Notes: a model not told the origin generated them from the letters alone. 64,000 nucleotides of DNA from OCS155 cluster bacterium AG-349-E07 (GCA_003281085.1 QCCZ01000004.1:3419-67418); one strand, 5' to 3'; shown: positions 25,085 to 53,991, counted from the stretch's first letter. Program-made: numbers and translations.

Positions 25085-28000
25085 TTATACCTCAGCCTCA
25101 TCTTGTTCTGGTCTTGTCATATCAATTCCTAATGTTTCAGCTGTTTTTACATATTCATCGCTAATATCCTTCATTGAAATTTCTTCTCCAGCAGATAGGA
25201 TTTCAACATTTAAGCAAAGGCTTTGCATCTCTTTAAGGAGGACTTTAAATGATTCAGGAATTCCTGGTTCTGGTATATTGTCACCTTTAACTATTGATTC
25301 ATAAACTTTTACCCTTCCAACAGTATCGTCAGATTTAATTGTCAGCAGTTCCTGTAGAGCATAGCTTGCACCATAAGCTTCTAGAGCCCAAACTTCCATT
25401 TCACCAAATCTTTGACCTCCAAATTGAGCTTTGCCTCCAAGTGGTTGTTGAGTAATCATTGAATAAGGTCCGGTTGATCTTGCATGAATTTTTTCATCAA
25501 CTAAATGTATAAGTTTTAATATATATGTGTACCCAACAGTAATCTTTGAATCAAAAGCTTCTCCTGTTCTGCCATCAAACAAGGTTGCTTTTCCATCTTC
25601 ATCAACAAGCAAGTTTCCATCTCTATTAGGGTTCACATTTCTTAAAATTTCATGTATTTCATCTTCATCAGCTCCATCAAATACAGGAGTTGAAATTAAT
25701 GTTCCAGGTTTTGCACCTTTAGCTGCTTTTGTTCCACCTTTATATTCACCCCAACCTTGGTCTGCAGCCCAACCTAAATGGGTTTCTAATATTTGACCAA
25801 GATTCATTCGACTAGGAACACCTAATGGTGAGAGCATAATATCAAGTGGTCTGCCGTCTTCCATGTAAGGCATATCTTCAACAGGTAGTATTTTTGAAAT
25901 CACTCCCTTGTTACCATGTCTTCCTGATAACTTATCTCCAACTTGTATTTTTCTTTGTATTGCGACGTAAACTCGTACTTTTTGATTAACACCTGGTGGC
26001 AAATCGGCGCCTTCGTCTCTCTTTAAGATTTGTACATCAATTACTTTTCCTCTTTCACCATGAGGAACTCGTAATGAAGTATCTCTTACTTCTCTAGCTT
26101 TCTCTCCAAATATTGCTCTTAAAAGTCTCTCTTCTGGAGTAAGTTCTGTCTCACCTTTCGGAGTTACTTTTCCAACCAAATAATCTCCAGGCGATACTTC
26201 AGCACCAATTCTTACAATACCCATTTCATCAAGGTCCATTAAAACTTCTTCCGCAACATTAGGAATATCTCTAGTTATTTCTTCTTCACCTAATTTTGTA
26301 TCCCTAGCTTCAATTTCGTGTTCAGCTATGTGGACAGATGTAAGAACATCTTCTTTGACTAATCTTTCAGAAATAACAATTGAATCTTCAAAATTGTATC
26401 CATCCCACGGCATATATCCAACTAGTAAGTTTTTCCCCAATGCTAATTCTCCACCTTGGGTACTTGGCCCATCAGCTAAAACATCACCGGGCTTTACTTT
26501 TGTTCCAACTTTAACTAATGGTTTTTGATTCCAACTAGTTGCTTGATTTGAACGCTTAAATTTGAGTACCTGGTATCTATACTTTTTATTTGTTCCATCT
26601 TCTTTGACAGTTATTTCATCACCTGTTACAGCCTCAACGATTCCTGCAATATTTGAAATTAGTGCTTCTCCAGAATCTCTAGCTACATTTTCTTCCATGC
26701 CAGTTCCAACGTAAGGTGCTTCTGTTTTTACAAGAGGAACTGCTTGTCGTTGCATGTTTGAACCCATTAAGGCTCTATTTGCATCATCGTGTTCAAGAAA
26801 AGGTATTAACGCAGTAGTTACGGAACAGATTTGTTTAGGACTAACATCCATGTAATCTATGTCTTTGTCTGAGACGAAAGCGACTGATCCCCCATCTTGT
26901 CTTGCAAGCACCCTTTTGTTTTGAAAGGTTCCGTCTTCATTTAATGGTGCATTAGCCTGTGCTATTGTATATATGTCTTCTTGTGCAGCAGTGAGGTAAA
27001 CTGCTCTACTTGTTTTTACTACACCATTTTCAACTTTCCAATATGGCGTTTCAATAAAACCAAATTTATTGACTCTTCCGTAAGTTGCCAATGTACCAAT
27101 AAGTCCAATATTTGGACCTTCTGGAGTCTCAATTGGACACATTCTTCCGTAATGAGATGGATGAACGTCTCGGACTTCAAAACCAGCTCTCTCCCTAGAA
27201 AGACCTCCTGGTCCAAGGGCTGAAAGTCTTCTTCTATGAGTAAGTCCAGCAATCGGGTTTGGTTGATCCATAAATTGACTTAATTGACTTGTTCCAAAAA
27301 ATTCTTTTAAGGAAGCTTGGATAGGTCTTATGTTTATTAATGATTGTGGAGTAATTGCTTCTGGTTCCTGGGTAGTCATTCTTTCTCTAACAACTCTCTC
27401 TAGTCTACTAAGACCGACACGTACCTGATTTTGAATTAATTCTCCAACTGTCCTGATTCTTCTATTTCCAAAATGATCAATATCATCTAGTTTGACCGGA
27501 ATTTCTTTTCCTAAATTGTTTTTAAAACTTTCTTCACCTGAATGCAGGGCAATTACATATTTAATTGAGTCAATCATGTCTTCTATTCTTAACATGCCGT
27601 CAACTTCAGTAGAGTATGTTTCAGCATCTTTCTCGCCGTATTCACGTCCAAGTTTTTGCTCAACCTTATATCTTCCAACCTTTGTTAGGTCATATCTTTT
27701 AGGAGTGTAGAACATCTGCTTTACCAGATTTCTAGCTGATTCAACTGAGGCAGGTTCTCCTGGACGAAGCTTTCTATATAAGTCAATTAGCGCTGCTTCT
27801 CTAGTAGTATCAGGATCTCTTTCAATAGTGTTATGAACTGATGGATAGTCTCCAAGAAGCTCAATAGCATCTTCTTTGTTTTCAATTACATCCAAAGCCA
27901 TTAAAAACCCAGTAATGTGCTGTCTTCTTTTTCTATCTACTCTTACACCTAAAGTGTCTCTTTTATCTGTGTCAAATTCAAGCCATGCACCTCTTCCAGG

Positions 28001-28474
28001 AATCATTTTTCCAATAAAAACTTCTTTGTCTGAAGTCTTATCAATTTCTTGAGAAAAATATACACCTGGAGATCTAACTAGCTGACTTACAATTACTCTT
28101 TCTGTACCATTTATAACGAATGTACCCGTATCAGTCATAATTGGGAAATCGCCTAAAAATACTGTCTGTTGTTTAATTTGGCCTGTTTCTCTATCAAGAA
28201 ATTGGGCAGTTACATATAAAGGTTGTGAATAAGTAGAGTCTGTTACTCTGCAGTCTTCAAGAGTCTTTAGCGGTTCTTCAAAATAATGGTTCAAAAATTC
28301 TAATGAAAAACGACCAGAGAAATCTTCAATAGGTGAAATTTCTTCAAGTATTTCTTTTAGACCTTCTTCAATAAACCACTTGAAGGAATCTTTTTGTATA
28401 ATTAATAAGTCTGGAATATCTAGAACTTTTGGAATTTTTGCAAACGAAAGTCTAGAATTCTGAACAGCGGACAA
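25085..28474 (-). CDS. rpoB: DNA-directed RNA polymerase subunit beta
   Basis: The ORF track runs to 28501, but that extension translates an AGGAGG box (28479-28484). I place the start at TTG 28474 (or 28477), giving [15 protein letters not shown]... The sequence is RpoB-like throughout. Confidence 0.95.
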
Positions 28475-28560
28475 CAAGCCTCCTAAAAAAATTAATAACA
28501 ACTACCCGAAAGGTAGAGTATATTAGTACTTTTTATTTAAGCAAACAAATAATAATAAAA

Positions 28561-34359: not shown

Positions 34360-35130
34360 ATGAAGCAAAGAAATACTCCTTTATTCCTATCGCTAGGAAT
34401 ACTTCTTATAACTACAATCATTGTTGCTATATTTGGAGTCGTACCTTTACCGAAATATGAAATCTTAGAGAATGAAGACGGACTCAGAGGAAAATTAATT
34501 TATCATGTTCAGGTTCAAAGTCAAAATTTAATTCCTCCCGCACCAGATATTATGGACGAATGTATTTTATTGATTGATCTTGAAGCTAATTCATTTAAAG
34601 AAGAAAAAATAATTTGTAGTAGCGACCTTTACGATATGTCATATGATATTTACTTTTACAATACTGAAATTTTTGAAGATGAAAATATCTTACTCAAATA
34701 TTGGGATGAATCATCAGGTGACGAAATGGGGCTAATAATAAATATAGAGACAAAAAAAGTAGTTGATAAGGTACAGCAACCAAATTTTTACTCTGAAGAC
34801 AGAAATAGGATGAATGTATATGGTGAAAAACTTATTGACCCATGGGACACGTCTGATTATAACTCAAGGGTAATTGGAGTCTACTATGCAAATAGAATGG
34901 AGAATATAGAAGTTTTCAAATCGAAAGCACCCACAAACTATTACTTTGAGTCTCTTCACTGGTCTCCAAATGGTGACTATATTGCAGCATTAGACTCGGA
35001 GGAAAATTTTATAATTTTTTCCAAAAATAAGAAATCCAAACCAGGAATAATACAATTTTCAGAAGTAAATTTGAAAATTTTTGATGATGAAGAAAGAGAA
35101 ATACAAAATTTAATAGGTTGGACTGATTAA
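34360..35130 (+). CDS. Membrane-anchored hypothetical protein
   Basis: 256 aa with one N-terminal TM, then an acidic Tyr/Asp-rich extracytoplasmic domain. It starts 4 nt after the upstream gene. I recognise no family. Confidence 0.5.
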   Translation: MKQRNTPLFLSLGILLITTIIVAIFGVVPLPKYEILENEDGLRGKLIYHVQVQSQNLIPPAPDIMDECILLIDLEANSFKEEKIICSSDLYDMSYDIYFYNTEIFEDENILLKYWDESSGDEMGLIINIETKKVVDKVQQPNFYSEDRNRMNVYGEKLIDPWDTSDYNSRVIGVYYANRMENIEVFKSKAPTNYYFESLHWSPNGDYIAALDSEENFIIFSKNKKSKPGIIQFSEVNLKIFDDEEREIQNLIGWTD

Positions 35131-36083
35131 TTAAATTTACTTTTAGGCCTTACTCCAATCTCACTAATGACATGTGCAGCACTTTTATTAGCAAAGTTAG
35201 CTGACTTATCTAAAGAGAATTCCTTTTGTAAACCATAGAGATATCCTGCTGCAAAGAAGTCGCCTGCACCTGTTTTATCAATAACTTTTGTTTCGGTAGC
35301 TTCAAAAAAATGTCTTTCACTATTCTTTAAAATTACCGCTCCGTCTGATCCTAAAGTACAAATTAATTCTTTAACTTTAGGAAAATTTTCTTCAAAATAT
35401 TTAAATGATTCATTTGTAGAACTTTGAAGACATAGAGAATTTAATTCATCTTCATTGCAAAACACATAATCAATATCATCTGCAATAAAGCTAATAAAAC
35501 TATCTCGATGCATCTCAACACAAAATACATCTGATAGGCTTATTGAATTTAGACCCCCAGATTCTTTATTAATCTTTGCTGCATTTAGAAAAGCAGATTT
35601 ACTTGAAGGTTTATCCCATAAGTAACCTTCCATATATAAAATTTTTGCTTCTTTAATTGCATCCATGTGTAAGTCGTCAACTGAGAGATGTTCACCAGCT
35701 CCAAGATAAGTGTTCATCGTTCTTTCACCATCAGGCGTAATAAAGATTGCACATAATCCAGTTTGATTATCTTCACTTTCAAGAACTGTATAATCACTTA
35801 GGCCAGAATCTTTTAAACTTGACTTAAATTTTTTACCTAAATCATCATTTGAGATTTTTCCAATAAATCCCACTTTTCCGCCCAATTGTGAGATCCAATA
35901 TGCTGTATTGGCTGCAGAACCTCCAGCTTCGTAAATTGGATTTTTCATATTTTGAAGAAGAAAATTTGAACGTTCTTTATCTACCAAAGTCATTCTTGCT
36001 TTGTTTAAATTTAATTCATCGATTACAAATTCTTCAATTTGTTCTAAAGAATCAACTAACGCATTTCCAATACAAATAATCAC
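35127..36083 (-). CDS. PfkB-family carbohydrate/nucleoside kinase (adenosine-kinase-like)
   Basis: 318 aa with the N-terminal GNALVD-type motif (IGNALVD) and the C-terminal DKTGAGDFFAAGYLYG anion-hole motif. Confidence 0.8.
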   Translation of the reverse strand: MIICIGNALVDSLEQIEEFVIDELNLNKARMTLVDKERSNFLLQNMKNPIYEAGGSAANTAYWISQLGGKVGFIGKISNDDLGKKFKSSLKDSGLSDYTVLESEDNQTGLCAIFITPDGERTMNTYLGAGEHLSVDDLHMDAIKEAKILYMEGYLWDKPSSKSAFLNAAKINKESGGLNSISLSDVFCVEMHRDSFISFIADDIDYVFCNEDELNSLCLQSSTNESFKYFEENFPKVKELICTLGSDGAVILKNSERHFFEATETKVIDKTGAGDFFAAGYLYGLQKEFSLDKSANFANKSAAHVISEIGVRPKSKFN

Positions 36084-36092
36084 AAATAAAGT

Positions 36093-36443
36093 TTAAATGA
36101 TTTGTCCTGGATTGCCTTCAGAGTCATAAATTTCTTTAGTAAAGTTTCTTAACTCTTTCATTCCGCCAGACATGTTATAGGCTTCTAAATCTTGTGAAAT
36201 CATATAGTTAGTTACCCTGGCTGATCTTGAACCAGACCGACATACAAATATATATTTTTCATTTTGGTGAAAACTATTCATATTATCCATTATTTCTCCC
36301 ATTGGAATATGAATAGCATTTACGTGGTGGCCAGATGTCCATTCATCGTTTTCTCTGACATCAACAAGTACACATCCTTCTTGTATCAAATTTTCAACTT
36401 CATTTGGTTGAACCGATGGAGTACTATTAATACCTAATTCCAC
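36093..36443 (-). CDS. Single-domain rhodanese-like sulfurtransferase
   Basis: 116 aa with VDVRENDEWTSGH and the active-site loop CRSGSRS. Confidence 0.8.
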   Translation of the reverse strand: MELGINSTPSVQPNEVENLIQEGCVLVDVRENDEWTSGHHVNAIHIPMGEIMDNMNSFHQNEKYIFVCRSGSRSARVTNYMISQDLEAYNMSGGMKELRNFTKEIYDSEGNPGQII

Positions 36444-37263
36444 TTTGAGCTTGCCTTAGTCGTCTTACTCTTTCGATTGTTGGGGGATGAGTTGAAAATA
36501 ATTTACTAAAACTATTGCCAGAAAAAGCCTTTAATGGATCAGATATAAAAAGTTGACTAACTGCAGGGTTAACATTCATTGGAACTTTTGAGTATCGATC
36601 AATTTTTTCTAGAGCTGACGCTAAAGCTAATGGGTTACCTGAGATTTCTGCACCTGTTTTGTCAGCACCAAATTCTCTAGTCCTCGATATTGCCATTCTT
36701 ATGATTAAAGAAGCTATAGGGGCTGCAATAAATGCCAAAATTATTATTGCAGGATGTGTGTTTCTATTTCTGCTTCCACCACCCCAAAAAGCCATCCTAG
36801 ACATAAAAGAAACTGCAGCTGCCAACATTGCAGCAATACTAGATACTAAAATATCTCTGTTTTTTATATGTGATAATTCATGGGCCAAAACGCCTTCTAA
36901 CTCATCTCTATTAAGAAGGTTTAATATACCTGTAGTTACTGCAACTTTTGCGTTTTTTGGATTTCTACCTGTTGCGAATGCATTTGGTTGATCGCTATTA
37001 ATAACATACAGTTCTGGCATTGGCATCTTTTCTTTTTGAGTTAGGTGAGAAATAATTTGAGTTACTTCACTAAATTGTCCATCTTTTATTGGCTGAGCAC
37101 GAGTTGATTTTATAGCTAAATTGCCTGAGAAAAAATAGATGAATCCATTAAAAATTAAAGCAAAAAAAAGTGCTGAAACAAGATCAAAACCAAAAGCTGT
37201 TGCAGAAAACATTACTACTAGAGTCATAAGCGTTAGTAGAGCGGTAGTTTTTACAAAATTCAT
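36427..37263 (-). CDS. htpX: Zinc metalloprotease HtpX (M48 family)
   Basis: 278 aa with four TM segments, the HELSHIKNRD (HExxH) motif and the downstream EFGAD motif. Confidence 0.88.
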   Translation of the reverse strand: MNFVKTTALLTLMTLVVMFSATAFGFDLVSALFFALIFNGFIYFFSGNLAIKSTRAQPIKDGQFSEVTQIISHLTQKEKMPMPELYVINSDQPNAFATGRNPKNAKVAVTTGILNLLNRDELEGVLAHELSHIKNRDILVSSIAAMLAAAVSFMSRMAFWGGGSRNRNTHPAIIILAFIAAPIASLIIRMAISRTREFGADKTGAEISGNPLALASALEKIDRYSKVPMNVNPAVSQLFISDPLKAFSGNSFSKLFSTHPPTIERVRRLRQAQSGIRY

Positions 37264-37287: not shown

Positions 37288-38304
37288 TTATAACTTTTCT
37301 GCAATTAAACAGTAAAAGCCTCCTAAACCATTTGAATCAACAATTGCTTTCATTCCATTCAACTCAGAATTAATCTTTAATTTTTCAATTCCTTCAGCGT
37401 ATATATACTTTTCTTGCAATTCATCAAAAAAAATATTGAATCCATTATCAAGTAAAAAATCTCTTTGTAGTTTTAAAGTCACATCATAACCAAGGTATTT
37501 TAGTTCTCTAGATATAGAGGAGAAGTTTACGTCGTAAGTAATATCTAAGTTTCCTGGATCTTCAATAGGGTCAACAGATAAATGATGATTTTTGTATGTT
37601 CTTAACAATGAACTATACACTCTCTTATCCCTGTTTTGCTGTTCGTAACCATAATCAAAAAGTAAAATTTTTCCAGGATTGATTTTTTTAATGACTGAAT
37701 TTAAAAATTTATCAATATTGACTTGAATCTCGAACTCATAATCCTCATTTGGAACAATATTATTTTTATTTACCCAATCAAGTTCTAAATTTCTCATAGG
37801 TTTTAAGTCATATGCCAGTGAAGCCTCCTCAAGTAACACTACTTTTTCATACCAAATTTCATCTTTATATAATCCGATAGAGCATGGTATATTGTCTAAT
37901 ATTTCATTTCCAAAAATTAAATCAGATGTTTTGGTAGTTAATTCATCAAAACTTGTATGTGTGTTTATCCCTTTATTAATTAATTCTTTTCTTGCAGTAG
38001 AAGATAGTTCAACAGCAGTAATTTCTTTTATACCTATTTGTTCTATCAAGGAACCTGTACCAGAGCCTATTTCAATAATATTTTTTAAATTACTTTCAGA
38101 ATTGATCCAATTTCGTATTATTTTTCCAAAATATTTCGAAACTTCGGGAGATGTTAAAAAATCACCATCTTTATCAGACCTTACTTGATCAGTATTAAAA
38201 AATCCTAGTCTCGAATATAAAGCTTCCTCCATAAAAGTGTCGAAATATATAAATTCTGTGTCATATTTTTCATGTAAATAAGAGAAAAAGTTTTGTTTCG
38301 GCAA
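37288..38304 (-). CDS. SAM-dependent methyltransferase of the DUF185 / NDUFAF7 (MidA) family
   Basis: 338 aa with GDFLTSPEVSKYFGKIIRNW (the family TSPE(I/V)S..FG motif) and the SAM motif EIGSGTGSL. Its TTG start lies 3 nt after the nuoN stop. Confidence 0.65.
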   Translation of the reverse strand: MPKQNFFSYLHEKYDTEFIYFDTFMEEALYSRLGFFNTDQVRSDKDGDFLTSPEVSKYFGKIIRNWINSESNLKNIIEIGSGTGSLIEQIGIKEITAVELSSTARKELINKGINTHTSFDELTTKTSDLIFGNEILDNIPCSIGLYKDEIWYEKVVLLEEASLAYDLKPMRNLELDWVNKNNIVPNEDYEFEIQVNIDKFLNSVIKKINPGKILLFDYGYEQQNRDKRVYSSLLRTYKNHHLSVDPIEDPGNLDITYDVNFSSISRELKYLGYDVTLKLQRDFLLDNGFNIFFDELQEKYIYAEGIEKLKINSELNGMKAIVDSNGLGGFYCLIAEKL

Positions 38305-38307
38305 ATC

Positions 38308-39786
38308 TTAATTGCCAAAAAATATCGAGGATACTTCTCCGAGATAACTGAAAATCCCTGGAAAGATTCCAGAAACAAATGTTATTAGAACAGTGAATAC
38401 ACCAACCACTTTAAGAGGATTTTCAAATTGAAAAATTTTCTCCTCATTGATAGATTTAGGTTCATCCATCCATATAACTTTTGATATTCTCGCATAATAA
38501 ACTAAAGCAATTACAGCATTTATTGCACCAACAACTCCGAGAGCAATTCCAATTGAATTTGCAGAGCCTAATAAGCTTCTAAATACTACAAACTTTGCGA
38601 ACCAACCACCTAAAGGTGGTATTCCCGCAAGTGAGAAAAAGAAGATTGTTGTTAAGACTCCGGCTAGAGGTGATTTTCTCGCAGCCCCTCCCCACTCATA
38701 GAAGTTTGTTGATCCGGCATAATTACTAAAAAGATGCACGGACAAGAATGCTCCTAAATTCATAAATGCGTAAATAATCAGATAAGTAACACTTGCAAAA
38801 ATTCCATCTTGATAATCTCCGGTAATTCCAGATATTGCAATTGGGGCTAATATAAAACCAGCTTGCGAAATAGATGAATAAGCTAAAAGTCTAACTGGGT
38901 TATTTTGTTGCAATGCGACCAAATTACCAAGTGTCATGGTCAAGCCTGAGATAATCACAAGAATTATCCCCCAGCTTGATCCTGATCCTGCAAAAACTTT
39001 GGTTAATAAAATTATGAGAGCAACAAAACCAGTTGCTTTTGAACTTACAGATAGATATGCAGTTACAGGTAAGGGTGCTCCCTCGTAAGTGTCTGGTGCC
39101 CATGAATGAAAAGGAACTACGGAAATCTTAAATCCAATTCCAGATATTACTAATATTGCACTCAGTAATACTACTGGAGAATTAGCAAGTGATGCACCAA
39201 GCAAATATGAAGAGATCTCGGAAAAAACTAGTTTGCCTGAAAGACCATACAGAAGCGAAAATCCATACAATATAAGAGAAGCTGATAATACGCCTAAGAG
39301 AAAAAACTTAATTGCACCCTCATTTGATTTTCGATCACCTTTTTTCCATCCAGAAAGTAAAAACATCGGAGTAGAGGCAAGTTCAATACCAATAAATATA
39401 GTTAACAAATCCCTAGAAGAACTGACTATTAGTGCACCTAAAAGAGAACTTAATAATAAGTAGTAATATTCTCCTTGGTAATACTTATCGCTTTCAATGA
39501 AGTTAATTGAGAGAAGGAAGGTTAAATAAGTAATTAATATAAATAATCCTTTTAAAATAATTGAAAATTTGTCAATAACAAAGCTATTTTCAAAAGCATA
39601 TATAGGTGTCGTATAGCTTGCCCATTGAATTACTAAAGGTGCCAAAGAAAATAAAGTTCCAAGAAGTGCAAAAGCAGCTACATAATATTTTGATTTTCTT
39701 GGAAGAATCAAATCAAGAACTAGTGTTCCAACTATGGTAAAAACTACAATAAGTTCAGTAGATATTGCAAAATAATTTATAGAAAT
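38308..39786 (-). CDS. nuoN: NADH-quinone oxidoreductase subunit N (start probably non-canonical, upstream of the track's TTG 39711)
   Basis: Antiporter-like protein with FKISVVPFHSWAPDTYEGAP. The frame stays open upstream to 39828 and encodes a TM1-like KISINYFAISTELIVVFTIVGTLVLD with no ATG/GTG/TTG. ATT at 39786 follows GGGGG. Confidence 0.85.
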   Translation of the reverse strand: MSINYFAISTELIVVFTIVGTLVLDLILPRKSKYYVAAFALLGTLFSLAPLVIQWASYTTPIYAFENSFVIDKFSIILKGLFILITYLTFLLSINFIESDKYYQGEYYYLLLSSLLGALIVSSSRDLLTIFIGIELASTPMFLLSGWKKGDRKSNEGAIKFFLLGVLSASLILYGFSLLYGLSGKLVFSEISSYLLGASLANSPVVLLSAILVISGIGFKISVVPFHSWAPDTYEGAPLPVTAYLSVSSKATGFVALIILLTKVFAGSGSSWGIILVIISGLTMTLGNLVALQQNNPVRLLAYSSISQAGFILAPIAISGITGDYQDGIFASVTYLIIYAFMNLGAFLSVHLFSNYAGSTNFYEWGGAARKSPLAGVLTTIFFFSLAGIPPLGGWFAKFVVFRSLLGSANSIGIALGVVGAINAVIALVYYARISKVIWMDEPKSINEEKIFQFENPLKVVGVFTVLITFVSGIFPGIFSYLGEVSSIFFGN

Positions 39787-39788
39787 TT

Positions 39789-41357
39789 TTAACCCCCAAA
39801 GGCTTTGGATAGCATGGCTATAACTGCATCATTCGTTGCACCAAATATTAATTTAGGAAATACCCCAATTAATACTGTTAAAACAACTAGTGGAATCCAT
39901 GCTGAAAGCTCATAAACATCTGCATCATGAAGATCTTTGTCTAACCATTCATCTGATGGCTCTCCTAAATTAACTCTTTGTAACATCCAAAGTAAATAAC
40001 CTGCGGTTAAGACAGTTCCAATAGCACCGGCAACCATCGAAGTTCTAAATACAGTTATATTTAAACCATCTAATGGATTGTAAGCTCCTAATAAAGCCAT
40101 GAATTCTCCCCAAAAGCCAGCAAGGCCTGGGAGGCCTAATGAAGCCATCGCAGTAAACCCTAACAATGCACCCGTTTTTGGGAGTAACTTCATGTTTCCT
40201 CCTAATCTGCCCATATCTCTTGTGTGGTAAGTATGTGCCATAGAGCCTGACAAGAAGAAAAGTAATCCAGTGATTACCCCATGAGCAACCATTCCTATCA
40301 TTGCGGCATTAATTCCTATAGGCGTTAAAGATGCTATTCCTAACATAACAAAACCCATATGACCGACTGATGAAAAAGCGATTAGTCTCTTTAAATCTGT
40401 CTGTGCAAGGCAAGCCAAAGATCCATATATAATTCCAATTGCCGAAAGAATGGCTATTGCTGGAGCCCATGCTTTTGCCTGATCTGGAAGTATAGGTATT
40501 GCAATTCTGACAAAACCGTATGATCCAAGCTTCAATAAAATTGCTGCCAGTAATACTGAGCCAACAGTCGGTGCTGCTGTGTGAGCATCTGGAAGCCATG
40601 TGTGAAGAGGCCACATTGGGACTTTTACAGCAAAACCCAAAAATAATACTGCAAATACCAGCGTTGCAAATGTTCCTGTAAATGCGCCTGAGGTTCCCAA
40701 CTCAATTAACTCAGGAATACTAAATGTTTTATTTCCCCGATAATAAAGTCCCAAAAAACCAAGAAGCATAAAAGCAGATCCAAATAATGTGAAAACAAAA
40801 AACTTAATACTTGCATAAAGCCTCGTCTCTATTTGATTTTTAAATCCAGATACAGTCCTTACAGTTTTATCGCCCCATATTCCGATCATAAAATACATAG
40901 GTAGTAATACAATTTCAAAAAATACGAAGAAAAGAATCAAATCTAAAGCTACAAATGTTCCATTCATTCCTGTTTCAAGAACGAGTATTAAAGCTAAAAA
41001 ACCTTTAGGACTTTTTGGTTCAGGTAAATGCTCTATTGAATAAATTATTGCTAGTACGGTAATAAAAGTTGATAACACTAAAAGAGGGAGAGATATACCG
41101 TCTATGCCAATTTCATAATTTGCATTTATACTTTTTATCCATGATATTTTATTACCAAGTTGGAGTTTGTCGGCTGAGGAAAAATCAAATTGAAATAGTA
41201 AGACTGCACTTAAAACAAAAGTGATGAGTGAAGAAACTAATGCAAACCTTTTAATTAATTGTTCCTGAGCTTTTGGTATCAATGTAATTATAAATGCACT
41301 AATCAAAGGGAAAAAGACTACAACAGAAAGCCCCATACCATTTGTCAATAATTCCAC
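39789..41357 (-). CDS. nuoM: NADH-quinone oxidoreductase subunit M
   Basis: 522 aa, antiporter-like, about 14 TM, with the block VPMWPLHTWLPDAHTAAPT. Confidence 0.93.
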   Translation of the reverse strand: MELLTNGMGLSVVVFFPLISAFIITLIPKAQEQLIKRFALVSSLITFVLSAVLLFQFDFSSADKLQLGNKISWIKSINANYEIGIDGISLPLLVLSTFITVLAIIYSIEHLPEPKSPKGFLALILVLETGMNGTFVALDLILFFVFFEIVLLPMYFMIGIWGDKTVRTVSGFKNQIETRLYASIKFFVFTLFGSAFMLLGFLGLYYRGNKTFSIPELIELGTSGAFTGTFATLVFAVLFLGFAVKVPMWPLHTWLPDAHTAAPTVGSVLLAAILLKLGSYGFVRIAIPILPDQAKAWAPAIAILSAIGIIYGSLACLAQTDLKRLIAFSSVGHMGFVMLGIASLTPIGINAAMIGMVAHGVITGLLFFLSGSMAHTYHTRDMGRLGGNMKLLPKTGALLGFTAMASLGLPGLAGFWGEFMALLGAYNPLDGLNITVFRTSMVAGAIGTVLTAGYLLWMLQRVNLGEPSDEWLDKDLHDADVYELSAWIPLVVLTVLIGVFPKLIFGATNDAVIAMLSKAFGG

Positions 41358-41367
41358 TTTTCCCCTC

Positions 41368-43383
41368 CTATGTTATAAATAAAATTAATAAACTAATTGT
41401 CACTACGCCACCTAAAAATAGCATTAAATATTGTTGTGTCTTGCCCGTTTGTAACAATTTAACCTTACCGCCAAAATTATCAGTTCCGGTTGAAGACATG
41501 TTTAACAATTTATCAATTCCATTTTGATCAAAATTATTGTACACAACACTACCCATTAAGGAAGCAACTTGTCCAAAACCATTTACAAATCTATCAATTA
41601 CATTTGTGTTAAATTTATCTACGGCTTTAGAAATATTAATTTTTACTGGATCAATTACAAACTTGAAATAAAAGTGATCTAGATAATATTTGTTTTCAAG
41701 AACTGACCATATAGGTTGAATTTTAATTTTATTATCACCTGTTTCTGCGCTTCCTTGCAACTGATATAAGTAATATCCAAGTGCGATACCTAGCAAACCA
41801 GCTAATAAGCCACTCGATAGTGCGAATAAGTCAAAGCTTTCCGGATGGTATTCAACAATTTTATTCTTCCTTGTTGTAACCCAGTCTGTAAATCCTGTGT
41901 AAACCCCAGGAATATTTACCCAACCTGAGGCTATTGCAAAGACAGACAGTGTTAGAAGCGGAGTTGTCATGAGATTGTGTGATTCGTGAGGATGGCCATG
42001 GCCTCTATACTCTCCAAGGAATGTTAAAGAAACTGCTCGAGTCATATAAAATGCTGTTATAAATGCACCTAAAACTGCTATAAAAAAGAAAGTAGTTTCT
42101 CCCTCATGATTAAATGAAGCAAGAATTTCATCTTTAGAGAAAAAACCTGCAAATGGTGGGAGTCCAGCTAAAGCAATAGTTCCAATTATGAATGTAGCAA
42201 ATGTCTTTGGCATAACTTTTCTCAAACCACCCATTTCTAACATACTATTGCTATGAACAGAGTGGATTACAGAACCTGCTCCTAAAAACAATAAAGCTTT
42301 GAAAAATGCGTGTGTCCACAAATGAAATAATGCAGCGGTATATGCGCCTGAACCAATTGCAGCAACCATATATCCCAACTGACTTACTGTTGAGTATGCA
42401 AGTACCTTTTTTAGATCGTCTTGTACAACCGCAATTAATCCAGCAGCTAATAAAGTAATAACACCGAAAAGCATCACAACATCTAATGCATCTGGTGCCA
42501 TTGCTTTATAAAATGGAAACATTCTTGCTAATAAATAAACACCAGCTGTGACCATTGTTGCTGCATGCATTAGTGCAGAGACAGGTGTTGGACCAGCCAT
42601 AGCATCAGGCAACCAAACATGTAATGGAAATTGAGCACTCTTACCCATCGCACCAACAAATAATAAAATTGCAGCAACAAACGCAACGGTAGATAACTTT
42701 TCATAATCATGTGTTGACTGATAAAGAATTTTAGAAATTCTCAATGTTCCAGTGTTTAAAGCTAAAATGATTATTCCAATCATCAACCCTACATCAGCTA
42801 TTTTATTTGTAATAAAAGCTTTCATGGCTGCAGAGGAATTATCTTTCTTCTCCCAGTAGTGACCTATTAGTAAGTAAGAGCAGACTCCAACAAGTTCCCA
42901 TCCAATTAAAATTTGAATAAGAGTTGGAGAAGATACTAAAACTAACATGCTTCCGGCAAATAGAGTTAGCGATGTAAAGAAAAAAGTATATCTAATTTCA
43001 CCTTCCATATAATTTGTTGCATAAATGAAAACAAGTAACGCAACCGTTCCAACAACAAAATACATCATTATTGATAGTCCGTCGACTACCCAGCCAAACT
43101 CAATATCAAATACACCAATACTTCCAACGTTTATAAAAAATTCATTTACAACACCACTTGTGATGTGTAAGTACATTAGTGCGGCACTGTACAAAAATAT
43201 TATTCCAATAGTAGTTAGGGCTACTTCTGCTCCTTTCAAAGGTAAATATTTACCTGTAAAAGTTATGACTAATGCAGCCACAAAGGGTAACACTACTAAT
43301 AACCAAGCATACTCTGCTAAGATTCCCCCGTCGGTGTAAACTAATTCACCTTCAGCAAAAACAGTGGGTTTGAAATTTACCAT
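41368..43383 (-). CDS. nuoL: NADH-quinone oxidoreductase subunit L
   Basis: 671 aa with the block SAQFPLHVWLPDAMAGPTPVSALMHAATMV and a long C-terminal extension typical of NuoL. Confidence 0.93.
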   Translation of the reverse strand: MVNFKPTVFAEGELVYTDGGILAEYAWLLVVLPFVAALVITFTGKYLPLKGAEVALTTIGIIFLYSAALMYLHITSGVVNEFFINVGSIGVFDIEFGWVVDGLSIMMYFVVGTVALLVFIYATNYMEGEIRYTFFFTSLTLFAGSMLVLVSSPTLIQILIGWELVGVCSYLLIGHYWEKKDNSSAAMKAFITNKIADVGLMIGIIILALNTGTLRISKILYQSTHDYEKLSTVAFVAAILLFVGAMGKSAQFPLHVWLPDAMAGPTPVSALMHAATMVTAGVYLLARMFPFYKAMAPDALDVVMLFGVITLLAAGLIAVVQDDLKKVLAYSTVSQLGYMVAAIGSGAYTAALFHLWTHAFFKALLFLGAGSVIHSVHSNSMLEMGGLRKVMPKTFATFIIGTIALAGLPPFAGFFSKDEILASFNHEGETTFFFIAVLGAFITAFYMTRAVSLTFLGEYRGHGHPHESHNLMTTPLLTLSVFAIASGWVNIPGVYTGFTDWVTTRKNKIVEYHPESFDLFALSSGLLAGLLGIALGYYLYQLQGSAETGDNKIKIQPIWSVLENKYYLDHFYFKFVIDPVKINISKAVDKFNTNVIDRFVNGFGQVASLMGSVVYNNFDQNGIDKLLNMSSTGTDNFGGKVKLLQTGKTQQYLMLFLGGVVTISLLILFIT

Positions 43384-43682
43384 TTCATTAAATCAAATTC
43401 GTTTATGTTAGCTGTTTGTCTGTTTCTAAATAACATGAGTACAATCGCTAATCCTATGCCTACTTCAGCTGCTGCAATCGTAATAATAAAAATCGTAAAA
43501 ATTTGTCCCTGCATTAAAGTATCAGCGAGCATCGTATCAAACAAGATGAAATTAATATTTACAGAGTTAAGAATGAGTTCGATAGATAAGAGAACCATTA
43601 CAGCATTCCTTCTGACTAATATTCCATAAATGCCTAGCGAAAATAAAGCAGCTGCTACTACTAAAACGGGTTGGACAATCAA
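43377..43682 (-). CDS. nuoK: NADH-quinone oxidoreductase subunit K
   Basis: 101 aa, three TM, with the block SIELILNSVNINF..AAAEVGIGLAI. Confidence 0.92.
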   Translation of the reverse strand: MIVQPVLVVAAALFSLGIYGILVRRNAVMVLLSIELILNSVNINFILFDTMLADTLMQGQIFTIFIITIAAAEVGIGLAIVLMLFRNRQTANINEFDLMKW

Positions 43683-44197
43683 ACTTGATCCTCATCAATT
43701 AGTGCTTCATCTTTTCTAGCTAATGTTATTCCTCCAATTAGAGCAGCAAGTAAAACAAACGAAACTAATTCAAAGGGAAAAACAAATCTACTAAGCAGTA
43801 TTTCTCCTAGCAGTTCAGTAGAAGAGCCGGAAGTTACGACAACTTGGCCATCAAATCCATTTACTAATATGTATGAAAACAAGAAAAATATTGAGCCTGC
43901 GATTGCCGCCCCTAATTTTTTATTTTTATCGTTATCAAGCTCGGCATTTTTTCCTAATGGTGCCCGAGTAATCATAATTCCGAATAAAAAGAGAACTATA
44001 ACCGCGCCAATATATACAAGCACTAATACAAGAGCAACAAACTCCGTTGAAAGAAGTAAAAATAATACAGAAGTCAAGGCTAGTGTAAACACAAGGGATA
44101 TAGCAGCATGAATCACGTTTGAAGTTGTTACTACCCTAAGAGCGGTTGAAACCAATAAAAGAAGAACGAAGTAAGTTACAATCTCAAAAATTTCCAT
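43679..44197 (-). CDS. nuoJ: NADH-quinone oxidoreductase subunit J
   Basis: 172 aa, five TM. Its position between nuoI and nuoK and its YIGAVIVLFLFGIM block support the call. Confidence 0.88.
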   Translation of the reverse strand: MEIFEIVTYFVLLLLVSTALRVVTTSNVIHAAISLVFTLALTSVLFLLLSTEFVALVLVLVYIGAVIVLFLFGIMITRAPLGKNAELDNDKNKKLGAAIAGSIFFLFSYILVNGFDGQVVVTSGSSTELLGEILLSRFVFPFELVSFVLLAALIGGITLARKDEALIDEDQV

Positions 44198-44199
44198 TT

Positions 44200-44685
44200 T
44201 TAACTTTCGAGTCCCTCAGGATCTGGAACAGTTTGGAGCCAATCGTCTAGGCGTTCTTTGTCGTGCAACATGTCACCCATGTTGAATTCAGAATATTCAT
44301 ATTCTGGTGACCAAAACAAAGCATCGAATGGGCAAACTTCTACACAAATTCCACAATACATACATAGTGCATAGTCAATGTCAAACCTGTCCAAGACAGC
44401 TCTACTTCTTTGTCTACCTCCAGGTTTTGAAGGAGGTTGTAATTCTTTATGGCCTTCTATATAAATACACCAATCAGGGCACTGTCGTGCACACAACATA
44501 CAACTGGTGCATGCTTCTTGGTCTAAAGCAATAACCCCTCTTGCTCTTGGTGCGACTTTTTCTTTTTCAAATGGATAGTTGACATTTGGTTTTGAATGGA
44601 ATGGAGATAAAGTTTTAAGCATATTTACAATGACAATTTTTATTCCGATTAAAAATCCTGGTATTTTTGGCTTGAATGTCTTCAT
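44200..44685 (-). CDS. nuoI: NADH-quinone oxidoreductase subunit I
   Basis: 161 aa with two 4Fe-4S ferredoxin motifs, CTSCMLCARQCP and CMYCGICVEVCP. Confidence 0.93.
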   Translation of the reverse strand: MKTFKPKIPGFLIGIKIVIVNMLKTLSPFHSKPNVNYPFEKEKVAPRARGVIALDQEACTSCMLCARQCPDWCIYIEGHKELQPPSKPGGRQRSRAVLDRFDIDYALCMYCGICVEVCPFDALFWSPEYEYSEFNMGDMLHDKERLDDWLQTVPDPEGLES

Positions 44686-45656
44686 TAAAATCCAACTTTC
44701 ATAATTGCAGTTACAAGAATATTAACTAAAGATGCCGGAATAAGTATCTTCCAAGCAAGGTTTTGTAATTGATCTTCTCTAAATCTTGGTTGTGACCACC
44801 TTATTGCTACCAAGATAAAACCTAAAATAGCAGTTTTAGTTAAGAGAACAACAGGTCCATAAAAGTTTACCCATTCTGTTGGTAGTAGAGGCACATGATA
44901 ACCACCAAGAAATAGTGTTGAAGCAATAGCACATAAAATGAACATATTCATGTATTCAGAAATATAAAAAATAAGAAATCTAATCCCAGAATATTCTGTC
45001 ATAAATCCCATAGTTAATTCTGATTCACCAATTGGCATATCAAATGGCACTCTCATCATTTCAGCTGTTGCGGCAACCATAAAAATTAGAAAACCAACTA
45101 TCTGTCCACCAACAACAAAAGGAACTCCCCATTCAATTTGTTTCTCTACGATCCCAACTAATGACATAGTTTCAGCTTGAATAACAACCCCGACTACAGC
45201 AAGTATCAGTGGGAGTTCGTATGCTATGAGCTGTCCTGCCGCTCTTAGTCCTCCCATAAGGGAGTATTTATTTGCTGATGACCATCCAGCAGTTAATACA
45301 CCTATGGTTCCTAAAGAGCTAATTGCAAGTGCAAAGAAAACACCTAGTTCTAAATCTGCAACTACTAATGTAGGACTCATTGGAACTACAGCAAAAAGAG
45401 CAACACAAGAAACCATAACATACGCAGGTGCCCATTTAAATACTGGCCTGTCAACTTCAGTTGGAATTATGTCTTCTTTTTGAACAAATTTTAGTATTTC
45501 AGCTAACGGAAATATAAAACCTCTAAGTCCAACATGTAAAGGCCCTGGCCTTCTCTGCATCCAGGAGGCACCTTTAACATCCATAATTGTAAAAATGATT
45601 GCGCCATTTAATGCAGCAAGTGCAAGAAAGCCAACTTTTGCTAAGACGTCTGTCAT
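44685..45656 (-). CDS. nuoH: NADH-quinone oxidoreductase subunit H
   Basis: 323 aa, eight TM, with NuoH/ND1 blocks (MQRRPGP..G, EFMTEYSG variant GFMTEYSG). Its start overlaps the nuoD stop by 4 nt. Confidence 0.93.
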   Translation of the reverse strand: MTDVLAKVGFLALAALNGAIIFTIMDVKGASWMQRRPGPLHVGLRGFIFPLAEILKFVQKEDIIPTEVDRPVFKWAPAYVMVSCVALFAVVPMSPTLVVADLELGVFFALAISSLGTIGVLTAGWSSANKYSLMGGLRAAGQLIAYELPLILAVVGVVIQAETMSLVGIVEKQIEWGVPFVVGGQIVGFLIFMVAATAEMMRVPFDMPIGESELTMGFMTEYSGIRFLIFYISEYMNMFILCAIASTLFLGGYHVPLLPTEWVNFYGPVVLLTKTAILGFILVAIRWSQPRFREDQLQNLAWKILIPASLVNILVTAIMKVGF

Positions 45657-46861
45657 CTGTCAACATCTCCCAACACAAAATCTAAACTACCCATTATTGC
45701 AATTAAGTCTGGTAGTAATGCACCCTCAAGCATAATAGGTAAAATTGAAACATTGCTAAATGAAGCTGTTCGAACTTTAAGCCTGTATGGTCCAAGCCCT
45801 CCATCTGAAATTATGTAGTAACCCATTTCTCCCTTTGGATTTTCAGCTCTTACATAAGTACGACCTTTAGGGACTTTTATAACTTTAGGAACTTTTGCTT
45901 GTAGCGGTCCAGAAGGCATTGAATCAATTGCTTGCAAAACTATTTTTGCTGACTCAACCATTTCTTTTACCCTGACGTCCCATCGATCGTAACAATCTCC
46001 ATTCTCTCCAACAGGAATATCGTAATCAAATTGATCATATGGCAAATAATCTGTTTGTGTTCTGAGGTCAGACTTAACTCCTGAAGCTCTAAGTATTGGC
46101 CCTGAAACACCATAGGCTTCTGCTGTCTCAGCAGTTAGTACTCCAACATTTTTTGTTCTTTTTTTAAATACTTCATTTCCACCTATTAAGTTCTGAAATT
46201 GATCAGCAGCTTCTATTACTTTTTCCATTGCAACTTTGGTATCTCTATAAAATCCAGCAGGTAAATCTTGAATATTTTTTTTCGAAGTAGGACCTGCTCC
46301 AGCTGCTGGTTTTACTCCACCTATTCGATTAAAGTTTGGATGAAAGCGACCACCAGTAACTGACTCAATTAAATCTAAAACTCTTTCTCTATCTTCCATC
46401 GCATAAAAAATCGGAGTTAATGCACCAACTTCAAGAGCATAAGCTCCATTAAATACAAAATGTGAAGAAATTCTAGCCATTTCAGTAAGAATTAATCTGA
46501 TATGTTTAGCTCTTTCAGGCACTTCAATTTCCATTAATCTTTCAGCACCAGCAATAAAAGGAATTTCATTAGAAAACCCTGCAACCCAATCAATACGGTT
46601 TACAAGTGTGGTTATCTGGGGATATGTTCTAACCTCTGCTAATTTTTCATATCCACGATGCATGTATCCAAGTACGGGTTTGACATCATGAACTTTTTCT
46701 CCATCTACTTTAGCGACCAATCTAAGTACTCCATGGGTTGATGGATGTTGAGGTCCAATGTTCAGCGTCATGTCTTCAGTTTCAATTTCTACTGATACAG
46801 ATGCCTCAGAAAAGTTATTCATATTTTGAGGATCTAGTGCATTAATCATCAGTTGTTTCAT
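45653..46861 (-). CDS. nuoD: NADH-quinone oxidoreductase subunit D
   Basis: 402 aa with NIGPQHPSTHGVLRLV, GYMHRGYEKL and the C-terminal SLDFVLGDVDR. Confidence 0.95.
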   Translation of the reverse strand: MKQLMINALDPQNMNNFSEASVSVEIETEDMTLNIGPQHPSTHGVLRLVAKVDGEKVHDVKPVLGYMHRGYEKLAEVRTYPQITTLVNRIDWVAGFSNEIPFIAGAERLMEIEVPERAKHIRLILTEMARISSHFVFNGAYALEVGALTPIFYAMEDRERVLDLIESVTGGRFHPNFNRIGGVKPAAGAGPTSKKNIQDLPAGFYRDTKVAMEKVIEAADQFQNLIGGNEVFKKRTKNVGVLTAETAEAYGVSGPILRASGVKSDLRTQTDYLPYDQFDYDIPVGENGDCYDRWDVRVKEMVESAKIVLQAIDSMPSGPLQAKVPKVIKVPKGRTYVRAENPKGEMGYYIISDGGLGPYRLKVRTASFSNVSILPIMLEGALLPDLIAIMGSLDFVLGDVDR

Positions 46862-47387
46862 CGCTTTCTGATTCTTCAGGCATTCCTTCTACATCAACAT
46901 CTCCCGGCCAAGGCTTTACTTCCCTACTAATTAGTTCAAAAGATTTAAGCATAGGATTGCCTTCGTATCCGTCAGGAAGATATAATTTTTCAAGATTTGG
47001 ATGATTTTCAAAATTTATTCCAAACATTTCGTGTGCTTCTCTCTCATGCCAGTTTGCTCCTGCATACACTTCTATAAGAGAGTCAATCTTTGGATCTGAT
47101 TTACCAATACTTGTCGAAACAACAATTAAATTAGTATTTGCTAAGTCCGATAAGCATGTAATTACTTCGAAACAGGGTGAAACGCTTTCTTTAGGAGCTT
47201 CACCAACAGAAACATCATTGTCCCAATCTACTGCTGAAAGCCAGGAGAAAAATTTCAAATTAAATTCATCTCTAAGTTTTTTATGTGCTTCAATCCACTC
47301 TGTTGAGTCAACTTTAATATTTATTGTTTCAAACTCTAATACAGCGTCTTTAAAGCTTTCTTTTATATTGTTATAAAATTCTTCCAT
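46842..47387 (-). CDS. nuoC: NADH-quinone oxidoreductase subunit C
   Basis: 181 aa with the 30-kDa subunit motif ANWHEREAHEMFGINFENHP and an acidic C-terminal tail. Confidence 0.92.
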   Translation of the reverse strand: MEEFYNNIKESFKDAVLEFETINIKVDSTEWIEAHKKLRDEFNLKFFSWLSAVDWDNDVSVGEAPKESVSPCFEVITCLSDLANTNLIVVSTSIGKSDPKIDSLIEVYAGANWHEREAHEMFGINFENHPNLEKLYLPDGYEGNPMLKSFELISREVKPWPGDVDVEGMPEESESDETTDD

Positions 47388-47388
47388 C

Positions 47389-47886
47389 TTAAATTGGCTC
47401 AGTTTGAACTTCTGTCCATTTTTCTTTCATATCTTCTCCACGAATTTTTTTCTGAAGAAGAATTATGCCCTCCTGAAGTGCTTCTGGTCTTGGCGGACAA
47501 CCTGGAACGTAGACATCTACAGGAATTAGTTGATCGACGCCCTTGGTGACTGAGTAAGAATCCCAATATGGACCGCCACTATTAGAGCAAGAGCCCATTG
47601 AAATAACATACTTTGGTTCTGGCATTTGATCATAGAGCCTTTTGACAGAAGGAGCCATTTTGTCTGTTACTGTTCCAGCTACAATCATGAAATCAGCCTG
47701 TCGCGGAGATGCGGGAAGTGGAATTACTCCTAATCTCATAAAATCGTGCCTAGGTCCACTTACAGCCATAACTTCAATGGCGCAACATGCTAATCCGAAT
47801 TGAAAATACCAAAGTGAATATGATCTAGCCCAGTTAAAAACTGATGATATAGGTTTTGGAAGACCAAATTTGTCTATGACTCCCAC
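47389..47886 (-). CDS. nuoB: NADH-quinone oxidoreductase subunit B
   Basis: 165 aa with cluster-N2 ligand contexts [16 protein letters not shown] and VPGCPPRPE. Confidence 0.95.
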
Positions 47887-48242
47887 TTAAGCACATCCTT
47901 TCTTATTGCATATATAAGACCAATTAAAAGAATGAATATAAAAACAAACATTTCAATTAATCCAAAATAACCCAGCTTTTCTAAATTAATAGCCCATGGA
48001 AATATGAAGACTGCTTCAACATCAAAAATTACGAAAAGTAAACCAAATATATAGTATCTAACATATGTTTGACTCCATCCTGTACCTACAGGGTCTACAC
48101 CACATTCATAAGTTTGCAGTTTTTCAGGATAAGGCTTGTTTGGTCTGAGCACAGAGGCCACCCCGAGTAATAATACAACAAGAAATAAGCCGAATCCCAG
48201 CACTGCTCCTATGGTCACGTAGTCTTGAAAATAAGAAATCAT
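47874..48242 (-). CDS. nuoA: NADH-quinone oxidoreductase subunit A
   Basis: 122 aa, three TM, with the YECGVDP motif. An in-frame stop lies two codons upstream of the ATG. Confidence 0.92.
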
Positions 48243-49430: not shown

Positions 49431-50219
49431 GTGAAAAATCTTAAACTTTTATTTTTTCTTTTAACTTTTTCTTTTTGTTCCCAATCAAGTGAGATGACAA
49501 TGGGAATGCCTGAACCGTATTTTGGAGGAACTGAGGACATAGCTTTTTCTGAAACTTCTTTATCACGAGACGGGTCTTTTTCACAAGGCGACTATATTAT
49601 TAAAACTGCTTATGCAAGCACAGACGTAAGTTCCTCTAATTTTGAAAATACAATCGATGAAGTAGAAGATTTAGTTAAGAACTACAACGGCAATATTTCT
49701 AATACTTATCTTTCAACTAATTATCAAGGTCTTAAAAGTTATAACCTAACAATGAACATTCCAGCAGAAGAGTTTGAAAGTTTCCTATTGAAAGTAGAAG
49801 AAATTTCCAAATTTACAAATATCAATTTGAACGCAAATGATGTAACTAAATATGTGCTTGATATTGATTCAAGATTGAAATCATTAAAAGATGAGAAGAA
49901 AGCGCTTGAAGAAATAAAAGAAGAGGCAGTATCAACATCTGACAAACTTCAAGTACAATCTCAGCTTCGGTACATCAATCAAGATATACAAGTGCTTGAA
50001 GGACAAAAAGAATATTATGAAAATTCAGTATCGTACTCTACTTTGACTCTAGATATCAGAGAAGGTTCAGGAGTTTCATTATTTTCTTGGAATTATTATG
50101 TTCAAAGAGCTTTAAATTGGATTGAATCAATAATTGGTTTTGGTGTGTCATTTGGCATAATTGCTGTTCCATTGTTGCTGTTATTACTAGGGTTTAAAAA
50201 ATTTAGGTCTAAAAGCTAA
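49431..50219 (+). CDS. Lipoprotein with coiled-coil and C-terminal TM anchor (DUF4349-like)
   Basis: 262 aa with a GTG start and a signal peptide ending in the lipobox-like FSFC. It has a central coiled coil (LKSLKDEKKALEEIKEE) and a hydrophobic C-terminus. Confidence 0.55.
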   Translation: MKNLKLLFFLLTFSFCSQSSEMTMGMPEPYFGGTEDIAFSETSLSRDGSFSQGDYIIKTAYASTDVSSSNFENTIDEVEDLVKNYNGNISNTYLSTNYQGLKSYNLTMNIPAEEFESFLLKVEEISKFTNINLNANDVTKYVLDIDSRLKSLKDEKKALEEIKEEAVSTSDKLQVQSQLRYINQDIQVLEGQKEYYENSVSYSTLTLDIREGSGVSLFSWNYYVQRALNWIESIIGFGVSFGIIAVPLLLLLLGFKKFRSKS

Positions 50220-53920: not shown

Positions 53921-53961
53921 TTATTTAAGAATATATTGAAAAATTAGATAATAAAAGAAAA

Positions 53962-53991
53962 AATTCTGGTCAGATTTCTCTGACCAGAATT
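53962..53991 (-). terminator. Hairpin with flanking T-run between the binding-protein and permease genes (partial terminator or mRNA stabiliser)
   Basis: AATTCTGGTCAGA-TTTC-TCTGACCAGAATT forms a 13-bp perfect stem. It is followed by a T-run on the minus strand and lies 30 nt after the binding-protein stop. Confidence 0.6.

Follow-up and report, generated by a model that had tools for sequence, protein, structure and literature searches.

Dimethylation of an arginine of the NDUFS2 subunit, beside the iron-sulfur (Fe-S) cluster N2, is required for the assembly of human complex I. Several systems related to it have been described. Mitochondrial NDUFAF7 symmetrically dimethylates NDUFS2 at Arg85 during this assembly (PMC3829151), and MidA from Dictyostelium methylated an NDUFS2 peptide in vitro (PMC9006661). 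In Paracoccus, the equivalent arginine of Nqo4 was measured as symmetrically dimethylated (PMC3750175; PMC8042128), and a review presented bioinformatic and structural evidence for alpha-proteobacterial homologues mediating NDUFS2 methylation (PMC9006661). The present study concerns a midA gene (37288-38304, minus strand) in a window of 64,000 nucleotides (nt) from OCS155 cluster bacterium AG-349-E07 (GCA_003281085.1 QCCZ01000004.1:3419-67418). The gene is an open reading frame (ORF) of 338 amino acids (aa) with a TTG start, encodes an NDUFAF7-like class I S-adenosylmethionine (SAM)-dependent methyltransferase, and directly follows nuoN in an 11-subunit complex I operon. By analogy with the systems above, the MidA-type enzyme, made by reinitiation at its TTG, would dimethylate Arg69 of NuoD prior to the docking of NuoB; we give this reading a probability of roughly 0.6.

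The membership of the ORF in the PF02636/COG1565 family, which includes MidA and NDUFAF7, is secure because of its profile score, its matches to solved structures, its fold and the 17 invariant residues it shares. PF02636 (Methyltransf_28, the DUF185 of the first-pass annotation) was matched over residues 63-267 at 87.1 bits, with a gathering score of 23.3 and an E-value of 1.7e-24. A word-indexed search with the protein found 757 homologues, and 3725 cluster representatives (50% clustering) were matched at E<=1e-3, so that midA is not a chance ORF. Just 18 of the 3725 were better than 1e-30, the clade of the query being divergent. Among proteins of known structure, the sequence matched COG1565 from Burkholderia (4f3n, E=4e-14, residues 18-329, nearly full length), Dictyostelium MidA (5ztz, E=2e-10) and the DUF185 protein of Rhodopseudomonas palustris (1zkd, E=6e-10). 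Close relatives of the query carry the IMG label 'SAM-dependent MidA family methyltransferase'. NCBIfam has no model for the MidA family and gave one match only, to KsgA, which was sub-threshold.

Conserved residues were read from a 29-sequence alignment (A1) of the query and 28 diverse relatives at 25-57% identity. The SAM-binding motif I, EIGSGTGSL, occupies residues 78-86 (38047-38073, minus strand), and its G80, G82 and G84 were invariant. The family signature GDFLTSPEVSKYFGKIIRNW lies at residues 47-66 (38107-38166, minus strand), where D48 and T51 were invariant and P53 and F59 were conserved in at least 90% of the sequences. The query kept 17 of 17 invariant columns, and those outside motif I were L29, Y30, G34, D48, T51, N133, E134, D137, P140, D217, Y218, G251, D254 and L284. 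The first-pass annotation had proposed a 338-aa ORF whose TTG start follows the nuoN stop by 3 nt, with both of these motifs and with membership of the DUF185/NDUFAF7 family. The ORF listing, the raw sequence, the translation, the profile score and the MidA/COG1565 structures found by sequence and by fold bear out each of these points.

The AlphaFold2 model of the product had a mean predicted local distance difference test score (pLDDT) of 73.9 and a predicted TM-score (pTM) of 0.77. The top six Foldseek matches of this model (4f3n, 5zu0, 4g67, 5ztz and two chains of 1zkd) were all COG1565/MidA proteins, with query TM-scores (TMq) of 0.63-0.72 and E-values from 1e-15 to 1e-13. The next matches were generic methyltransferases with E=5e-5 and a TMq of 0.34. 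As modelled, the full-length fold, which consists of a methyltransferase core with family-specific N- and C-terminal parts, is shared only with MidA/COG1565 structures.

Compared with NDUFAF7 and Dictyostelium MidA (5ZTZ, 5ZU0), the query has in common PF02636, motif I and the family-invariant residues. Its model has the same full-length fold as Dictyostelium MidA (TMq 0.70, E=4e-15), the two being about 22% identical when aligned by structure, and in both systems the partner subunit carries the target motif HRGxEK. The genetic link to complex I is provided by the operon for the query, and by knock-down and knock-out phenotypes for NDUFAF7 and Dictyostelium MidA. It was different from these proteins in length (338 aa versus about 400 aa), in having no targeting peptide and in being encoded inside a nuo operon; furthermore, its partner complex is the 11-subunit form without the NADH-oxidising NuoEFG module, and its activity and substrate are predicted. 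R. palustris 1ZKD belongs to the same family and has the same fold, with 18% identity to the query in the structural alignment, and the modification of a bacterial complex I is documented in Paracoccus; however, the complexes of R. palustris and Paracoccus are 14-subunit enzymes, and the 1ZKD gene lies between lgt and Cu-oxidase_4. The best match of the query was COG1565 of Burkholderia thailandensis (4F3N/4G67), both by sequence, as given above, and by fold (E=1.6e-15, TMq 0.70), although the beta- and gamma-proteobacterial COG1565 proteins form a separate clade of the tree and, in the 22 loci sampled, had no nuo genes in their flanks. In addition, a bacterial nuo operon with a SAM-dependent methyltransferase gene in it has a precedent in Rhodobacter capsulatus, where the gene is urf7; the urf7 product has 257 aa and a role predicted in silico, and no PF02636 assignment is given for it in that report (PMC9036352).

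The junction between nuoN and midA reads GGC AAT TAA GAT TTG CCG AAA on the minus strand of the raw window sequence. The nuoN stop codon TAA (38310-38308), a 3-nt spacer GAT and the midA start TTG (38304-38302) thus follow one another within 38302-38310. No Shine-Dalgarno-like sequence (AGGA/GGAG) was found at positions -30 to -1 before the TTG. The midA start therefore abuts the upstream stop and has no ribosome-binding site of its own, as is expected of translational coupling, and the missing Shine-Dalgarno sequence fits termination-reinitiation coupling with nuoN. Judging from the junction, ribosomes ending nuoN probably reinitiate at the midA TTG. The first-pass annotation had stated this coupling outright; the abutting arrangement holds, and the coupling itself is what we infer from it.

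Only two candidate starts were present in midA, the TTG at codon 1 and an ATG at codon 25. Residues 5-24 aligned with an N-terminal helix that the family conserves and in which F21 was kept in at least 90% of the 29 diverse homologues, and the TTG is accordingly regarded as the real start. The ATG, which would give the 314-aa product of many gene callers, was rejected because residues 5-24 are homologous to that helix. In 12 of 12 Actinomarina loci (11 contigs, since L001 and L006 are one contig), midA started with TTG or GTG 2-4 nt past the nuoN stop. Five loci of clade A, a group distant from the query that is described below, had a candidate GTG start overlapping the end of nuoN by 17 nt.

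Some features of the gene could suggest a remnant that is decaying or has lost catalysis, be it a gene on which selection is relaxed or one whose product acts as an assembly chaperone of the scaffold type and transfers no methyl group. The G+C content of midA was 28.0%, the lowest in the operon (nuoN has 34.5%, the window 34.7%), and the TTG is a weak start without a Shine-Dalgarno sequence. The product is also shorter than most relatives, which have 345-400 aa, and it diverges much faster than its neighbours: between Actinomarina species (L006-L012), MidA was 44-64% identical, versus 70-99% for the Nuo subunits and 76-93% for HtpX. A remnant is nevertheless highly improbable because the ORF and its catalytic motifs are intact everywhere. 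No break in the ORF was seen in the 12 Actinomarina loci or in hundreds of copies from metagenomes, neither motif I (GxGxG) nor any family-invariant residue was lost, and the full-length fold was retained in the AlphaFold2 model.

The partner operon was an 11-subunit nuo operon, nuoABCDHIJKLMN (38308-48242, minus strand), in which every subunit was identified by Pfam. In order of transcription it comprises nuoA (47874-48242), nuoB (47389-47886), nuoC (46842-47387), nuoD (45653-46861), nuoH (44685-45656), nuoI (44200-44685), nuoJ (43679-44197), nuoK (43377-43682), nuoL (41368-43383), nuoM (39789-41357) and nuoN (38308-39711), all on the minus strand; the nuoN product matched TIGR01770 at 348.8 bits. 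The composition of the operon had been left unstated in the first-pass annotation: it has 11 subunits, with nuoEFG missing between nuoD and nuoH. The absence of nuoE, nuoF and nuoG follows from the overlap of nuoD with the start of nuoH. The 11-subunit form of complex I is the 'ancestral' type. Within the nuo unit, midA is the twelfth cistron and the last but three.

The motif GYMHRGYEKL was found at residues 65-74 of NuoD, and the codon of Arg69, the presumed methylation target, lies at 46655-46657 (minus strand); the NuoD translation agrees with the first-pass annotation on both the conserved arginine and its position. This position is equivalent to the dimethylated arginine in the HRGXE motif of NDUFS2 (PMC8042128). 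By translation and by PF01058, NuoB (47389-47886, minus strand) had intact cluster N2 ligands (CC...C...C, four cysteines), so the surroundings of the target arginine are present. Among NuoD sequences from midA-linked operons, the HRG arginine was kept in all 14 that were readable.

Some details of the operon are less clear. The start of nuoN is uncertain: its longest ORF, which opens with the TTG at 39711, has 467 aa, and relatives are called at 442-485 aa; with this choice of start the gap between nuoM and nuoN is 77 nt or more. A terminator-like hairpin with 10 pairs (3 of them G-C) and a T-rich tail was seen inside the 3' end of nuoN (38354-38376, minus strand), about 45 nt before the stop. 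The promoter scan gave 54 sites versus 65 expected from shuffled controls, and the terminator scan gave 5 versus 7.7 expected. As such sites are rarer than in the controls, the scans are uninformative on transcription units, and for the same reason the hairpin is probably a chance occurrence.

The conservation of the nuoN-midA link was surveyed in one genome per GTDB species. The genomes were scanned with the family pattern GDF[LV]T[SA]PE[VI], which retrieved 558 confirmed relatives, and the best 80 loci were kept; alignment A1 was too divergent as a seed for the scan, and a 9-sequence alignment (A2) worked. Homologues of Nuo, HtpX, rhodanese and PfkB were placed in these loci by tblastn with the window proteins. 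The closest relatives were single-cell genomes and metagenome-assembled genomes (MAGs) of Candidatus Actinomarina. Among 58 Acidimicrobiia-type loci, nuoN lay at most 410 nt upstream of midA in 24 and 1.3-8.8 kb upstream in 5, and was not seen in 29; for 18 of these 29, upstream sequence of 9.4 kb or more was available. The 24 directly linked loci were the 7 Actinomarina representatives, without exception, and 17 further loci with a MidA only 23-34% identical to the query. Wherever both genes were visible in the linked loci, nuoD and nuoH were adjacent, and the linked operon is thus always of the 11-subunit kind.

Furthermore, a neighbour-joining tree of MidA, covering only sequences of Acidimicrobiia and of beta- and gamma-proteobacteria, separated the one group from the other. 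The nuoN-linked midA occurred in all three deep Acidimicrobiia clades of this tree. In clade A (Ilumatobacter/Microthrix-like), 13 of 14 loci were nuoN-linked, and the exception had just 48 nt of upstream sequence; the Ilumatobacter-type loci of this clade, L061 and L075, come from uncultured MAGs. The order in clade C (Actinomarina and allies) was nuoN-midA-htpX. Adjacency of midA and htpX (<=800 nt) was found in 28 of the 58 Acidimicrobiia-type loci. In clade B, the early branches L029, L030, L042 and L048 retained nuoN beside or near midA, and likewise L045. The simplest reading of these gene orders is an ancestral nuoN-midA(-htpX) arrangement that was broken in one derived Acidimicrobiia subclade. 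The first-pass annotation had treated the adjacency as something that relatives should conserve; this was true of all Actinomarina and of the 17 further Acidimicrobiia loci in three clades, and it failed in one subclade and in the proteobacterial loci considered below. At the level of sequence analysis, the link between methyltransferase and complex I that the annotation proposed is thus supported.

With the gene, its partner operon and their linkage described, the proposed course of events can be set out. Ribosomes terminating on nuoN would reinitiate at the TTG and yield a small, sub-stoichiometric amount of enzyme from the mRNA of the structural subunits. The enzyme would then dimethylate the guanidino group of NuoD Arg69 in HRGxE, by analogy with NDUFAF7 of mitochondria and the modified Nqo4 of Paracoccus. 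Its substrate would be free NuoD, ahead of the step in which NuoB buries Arg69 beside the Fe-S cluster N2, much as NDUFAF7 works at an early stage of Q-module assembly in mitochondria, and the methylated arginine would promote assembly of the Q-module, tune N2, or both.

Several results weigh against this assignment of NuoD as the substrate. The model had a pLDDT below 50 over residues 220-258, which carry the conserved RTY, DP, PG and DIT motifs, and the geometry of the active site was unreadable there. The query was at similar distances from the beta-proteobacterial (4e-14), eukaryotic (2e-10) and alpha-proteobacterial (6e-10) members, and orthology to NDUFAF7 proper is therefore not established. 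The fast divergence of MidA also counts against the assignment: identity between Actinomarina species was 60-64% for MidA, 85-99% for most Nuo subunits and about 90% for HtpX. Adjacency alone is weak evidence, because the gaps at the operon tail are only 3-24 nt in a streamlined genome. The HRG arginine is not diagnostic either, since its counterpart in E. coli complex I is unmodified, as given by Hameedi et al. citing Carroll et al. (PMC8042128). In addition, the function of prokaryotic MidA has been said to have 'only been inferred in silico' (PMC12455994).

The gene orders outside the linked loci count on the same side. Most of clade B had midA-htpX without nuo, and no nuo gene was found in the flanks of the 22 beta/gamma-proteobacterial midA loci, with nuoN seen neither at most 410 nt nor 1.3-8.8 kb upstream in any of them. 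In a Rhodopseudomonas control locus with a close homologue of 1ZKD, the order was lgt-midA-Cu-oxidase_4 and no nuo gene lay within 10 kb. With the R. palustris 1ZKD fragment as the query, all homologues recovered were named Rhodopseudomonas or Bradyrhizobium and were at least 76% identical, so this alpha-proteobacterial control represents a single lineage. An apparent alpha-proteobacterial nuo link in two loci named 'uncultured Kiloniellales' (L042, L046) was rejected on the ground that the Nuo as well as the MidA proteins of these loci group with those of Acidimicrobiia; their 11-subunit Nuo proteins were 42-74% identical to those of the window, and the two loci are probably mis-binned contigs in their MAGs.

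These gene orders are also what would be expected if the product were a MidA-family methyltransferase with another substrate, such as a Nuo subunit other than NuoD, a partner or client of the membrane protease HtpX, some other protein or a nucleic acid, with the position after nuoN being synteny inherited in compact genomes. The midA-htpX pair was at least as frequent as nuoN-midA (28 versus 24 of the 58 loci) and persisted in the subclade unlinked to nuo, and the pattern of clade B raises the possibility of a MidA-HtpX pairing independent of nuo. At one such locus (L017, 9980-11906; clade B, L014-L047) the order was tsaE-tsaB-tsaD-groEL, an unassigned gene, midA and htpX, and the upstream genes tsaE, tsaD and groEL are unrelated to respiration. 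The beta/gamma-proteobacterial members and R. palustris lack the link to nuo, the family is very large (3725 representatives), and DNA methylation was reported for Wolbachia MidA in E. coli (PMC12455994). That report, however, was called preliminary by its own authors, and the sole experimentally supported substrate of the family is the NDUFS2/Nqo4 arginine. Moreover, nuoN adjacency was found in three clades only about 25-30% identical to one another, with starts abutting or possibly overlapping the nuoN stop, and adjacency across clades so diverged exceeds what passive synteny predicts. A different substrate is the main rival reading but is considered less likely than methylation of NuoD Arg69.

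The tight same-strand packing of the nuo unit continued beyond midA. Downstream of a 24-nt gap lies htpX, an M48 zinc metalloprotease gene (36427-37263, minus strand; PF01435, NF002826), followed with a 17-nt overlap by a rhodanese gene (36093-36443, minus strand; PF00581) and, after a gap of 9 nt, by a pfkB-family kinase gene (35127-36083, minus strand; PF00294). The tail of the transcription unit thus extends over 35127-36443, and the order midA-htpX-rhodanese-pfkB was common to the Actinomarina loci. A second NuoN paralogue was found at the right edge of the window (62528-64000, minus strand; TIGR01770, 316 bits). Downstream of it were an ABC ATPase and an ABC-2 permease (60816-62353, minus strand) and no methyltransferase gene, which indicates that the methyltransferase is carried only by the 11-subunit operon. 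The 14-subunit nuo operon noted in the literature presumably ends with this second nuoN, its nuoD lying beyond the right end of the window.

On the other side of the nuo operon, a heliorhodopsin gene (50295-51098, minus strand; PF18761, E=8e-88) lay on the same strand as nuo and directly downstream of an afuABC-like iron-uptake ABC system of ATPase, permease and binding protein (51339-55181, minus strand). This setting agrees with the heliorhodopsin context 'C11' published for Actinomarina. A phosphodiesterase gene (48324-49412) and a DUF4349 gene (49431-50219), both on the plus strand, stood between heliorhodopsin and nuoA. Ferrochelatase (55262-56281) and a DtxR-type iron-dependent repressor (56561-57250) were encoded on the plus strand, divergent from the adjoining iron transporter; with that transporter and the heliorhodopsin/nuo unit, they make up a neighbourhood centred on iron. 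Positions 1-32800 were a dense run of minus-strand ORFs, two of them very large, at 21167-25081 (1304 aa) and 25085-28501 (1138 aa); given the SecE, NusG, L11, L1 and L10 genes in syntenic loci, this run resembles the rpoBC and ribosomal-protein superoperon.

The same gene cluster of Candidatus Actinomarina (TMED189) has been published by Bulzu et al. in 2021 (bioRxiv 10.1101/2021.02.01.429150). There the cluster comprises afuABC, heliorhodopsin, the 11-subunit nuo operon, NDUFAF7 (K18164/PF02636), htpX, pspE (rhodanese) and adenosine kinase; NDUFAF7, htpX and pspE are described as accessory components of the complex, and a 14-subunit nuo operon is placed close by. The window contains the same locus, with afu, heliorhodopsin, nuo, PF02636, htpX, rhodanese, pfkB and the second nuoN, and it differs in the plus-strand phosphodiesterase and DUF4349 genes between heliorhodopsin and nuoA. 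The genomic-context section of that preprint mentions the methyltransferase in passing as an 'accessory component', without the 3-nt junction or the wider conservation.

The locus and its reading are therefore already published, the family is known, and the protein is already annotated in public databases. The first-pass annotation had presented the gene as a new prokaryotic counterpart of a mitochondrial assembly step, which overstated its novelty: the locus had been described with NDUFAF7 named, and the dimethylated arginine of a bacterial Nqo4 was known from Paracoccus. With the evidence for alpha-proteobacterial homologues, the idea of a prokaryotic counterpart is not new. What is added here is the class-wide nuoN-midA linkage, which is specific to the 11-subunit operon and is lost in one subclade. 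For this window itself the value is mostly confirmatory, the gene having been correctly identified.

Across much of a bacterial class, a methyltransferase and its presumed substrate are thus encoded on one mRNA, together with the rest of the minimal 11-subunit enzyme. The Acidimicrobiia as a whole may have inherited the nuoN-midA(-htpX) order from their common ancestor, and this order may belong specifically with the form of complex I that has 11 subunits and lacks NuoEFG. These operons hint that the modification predates the alpha-proteobacterial lineage and extends beyond it, and we would only tentatively suggest, at somewhat less than even odds, that methylation of the NuoD arginine goes far back in the minimal complex I and is not a proteobacterial invention. 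E. coli, in whose complex I the corresponding arginine is reportedly unmodified, could serve as a simple heterologous host in which to bring NuoB, NuoD and MidA together. If NuoD is dimethylated in these bacteria, methylation beside N2 would be an ancient feature of the Q-module, contradicting the framing of a 'proteobacterial origin', and these operons, in which a single transcript encodes both enzyme and substrate, would be the first compact genetic system in bacteria for studying what the modification does.

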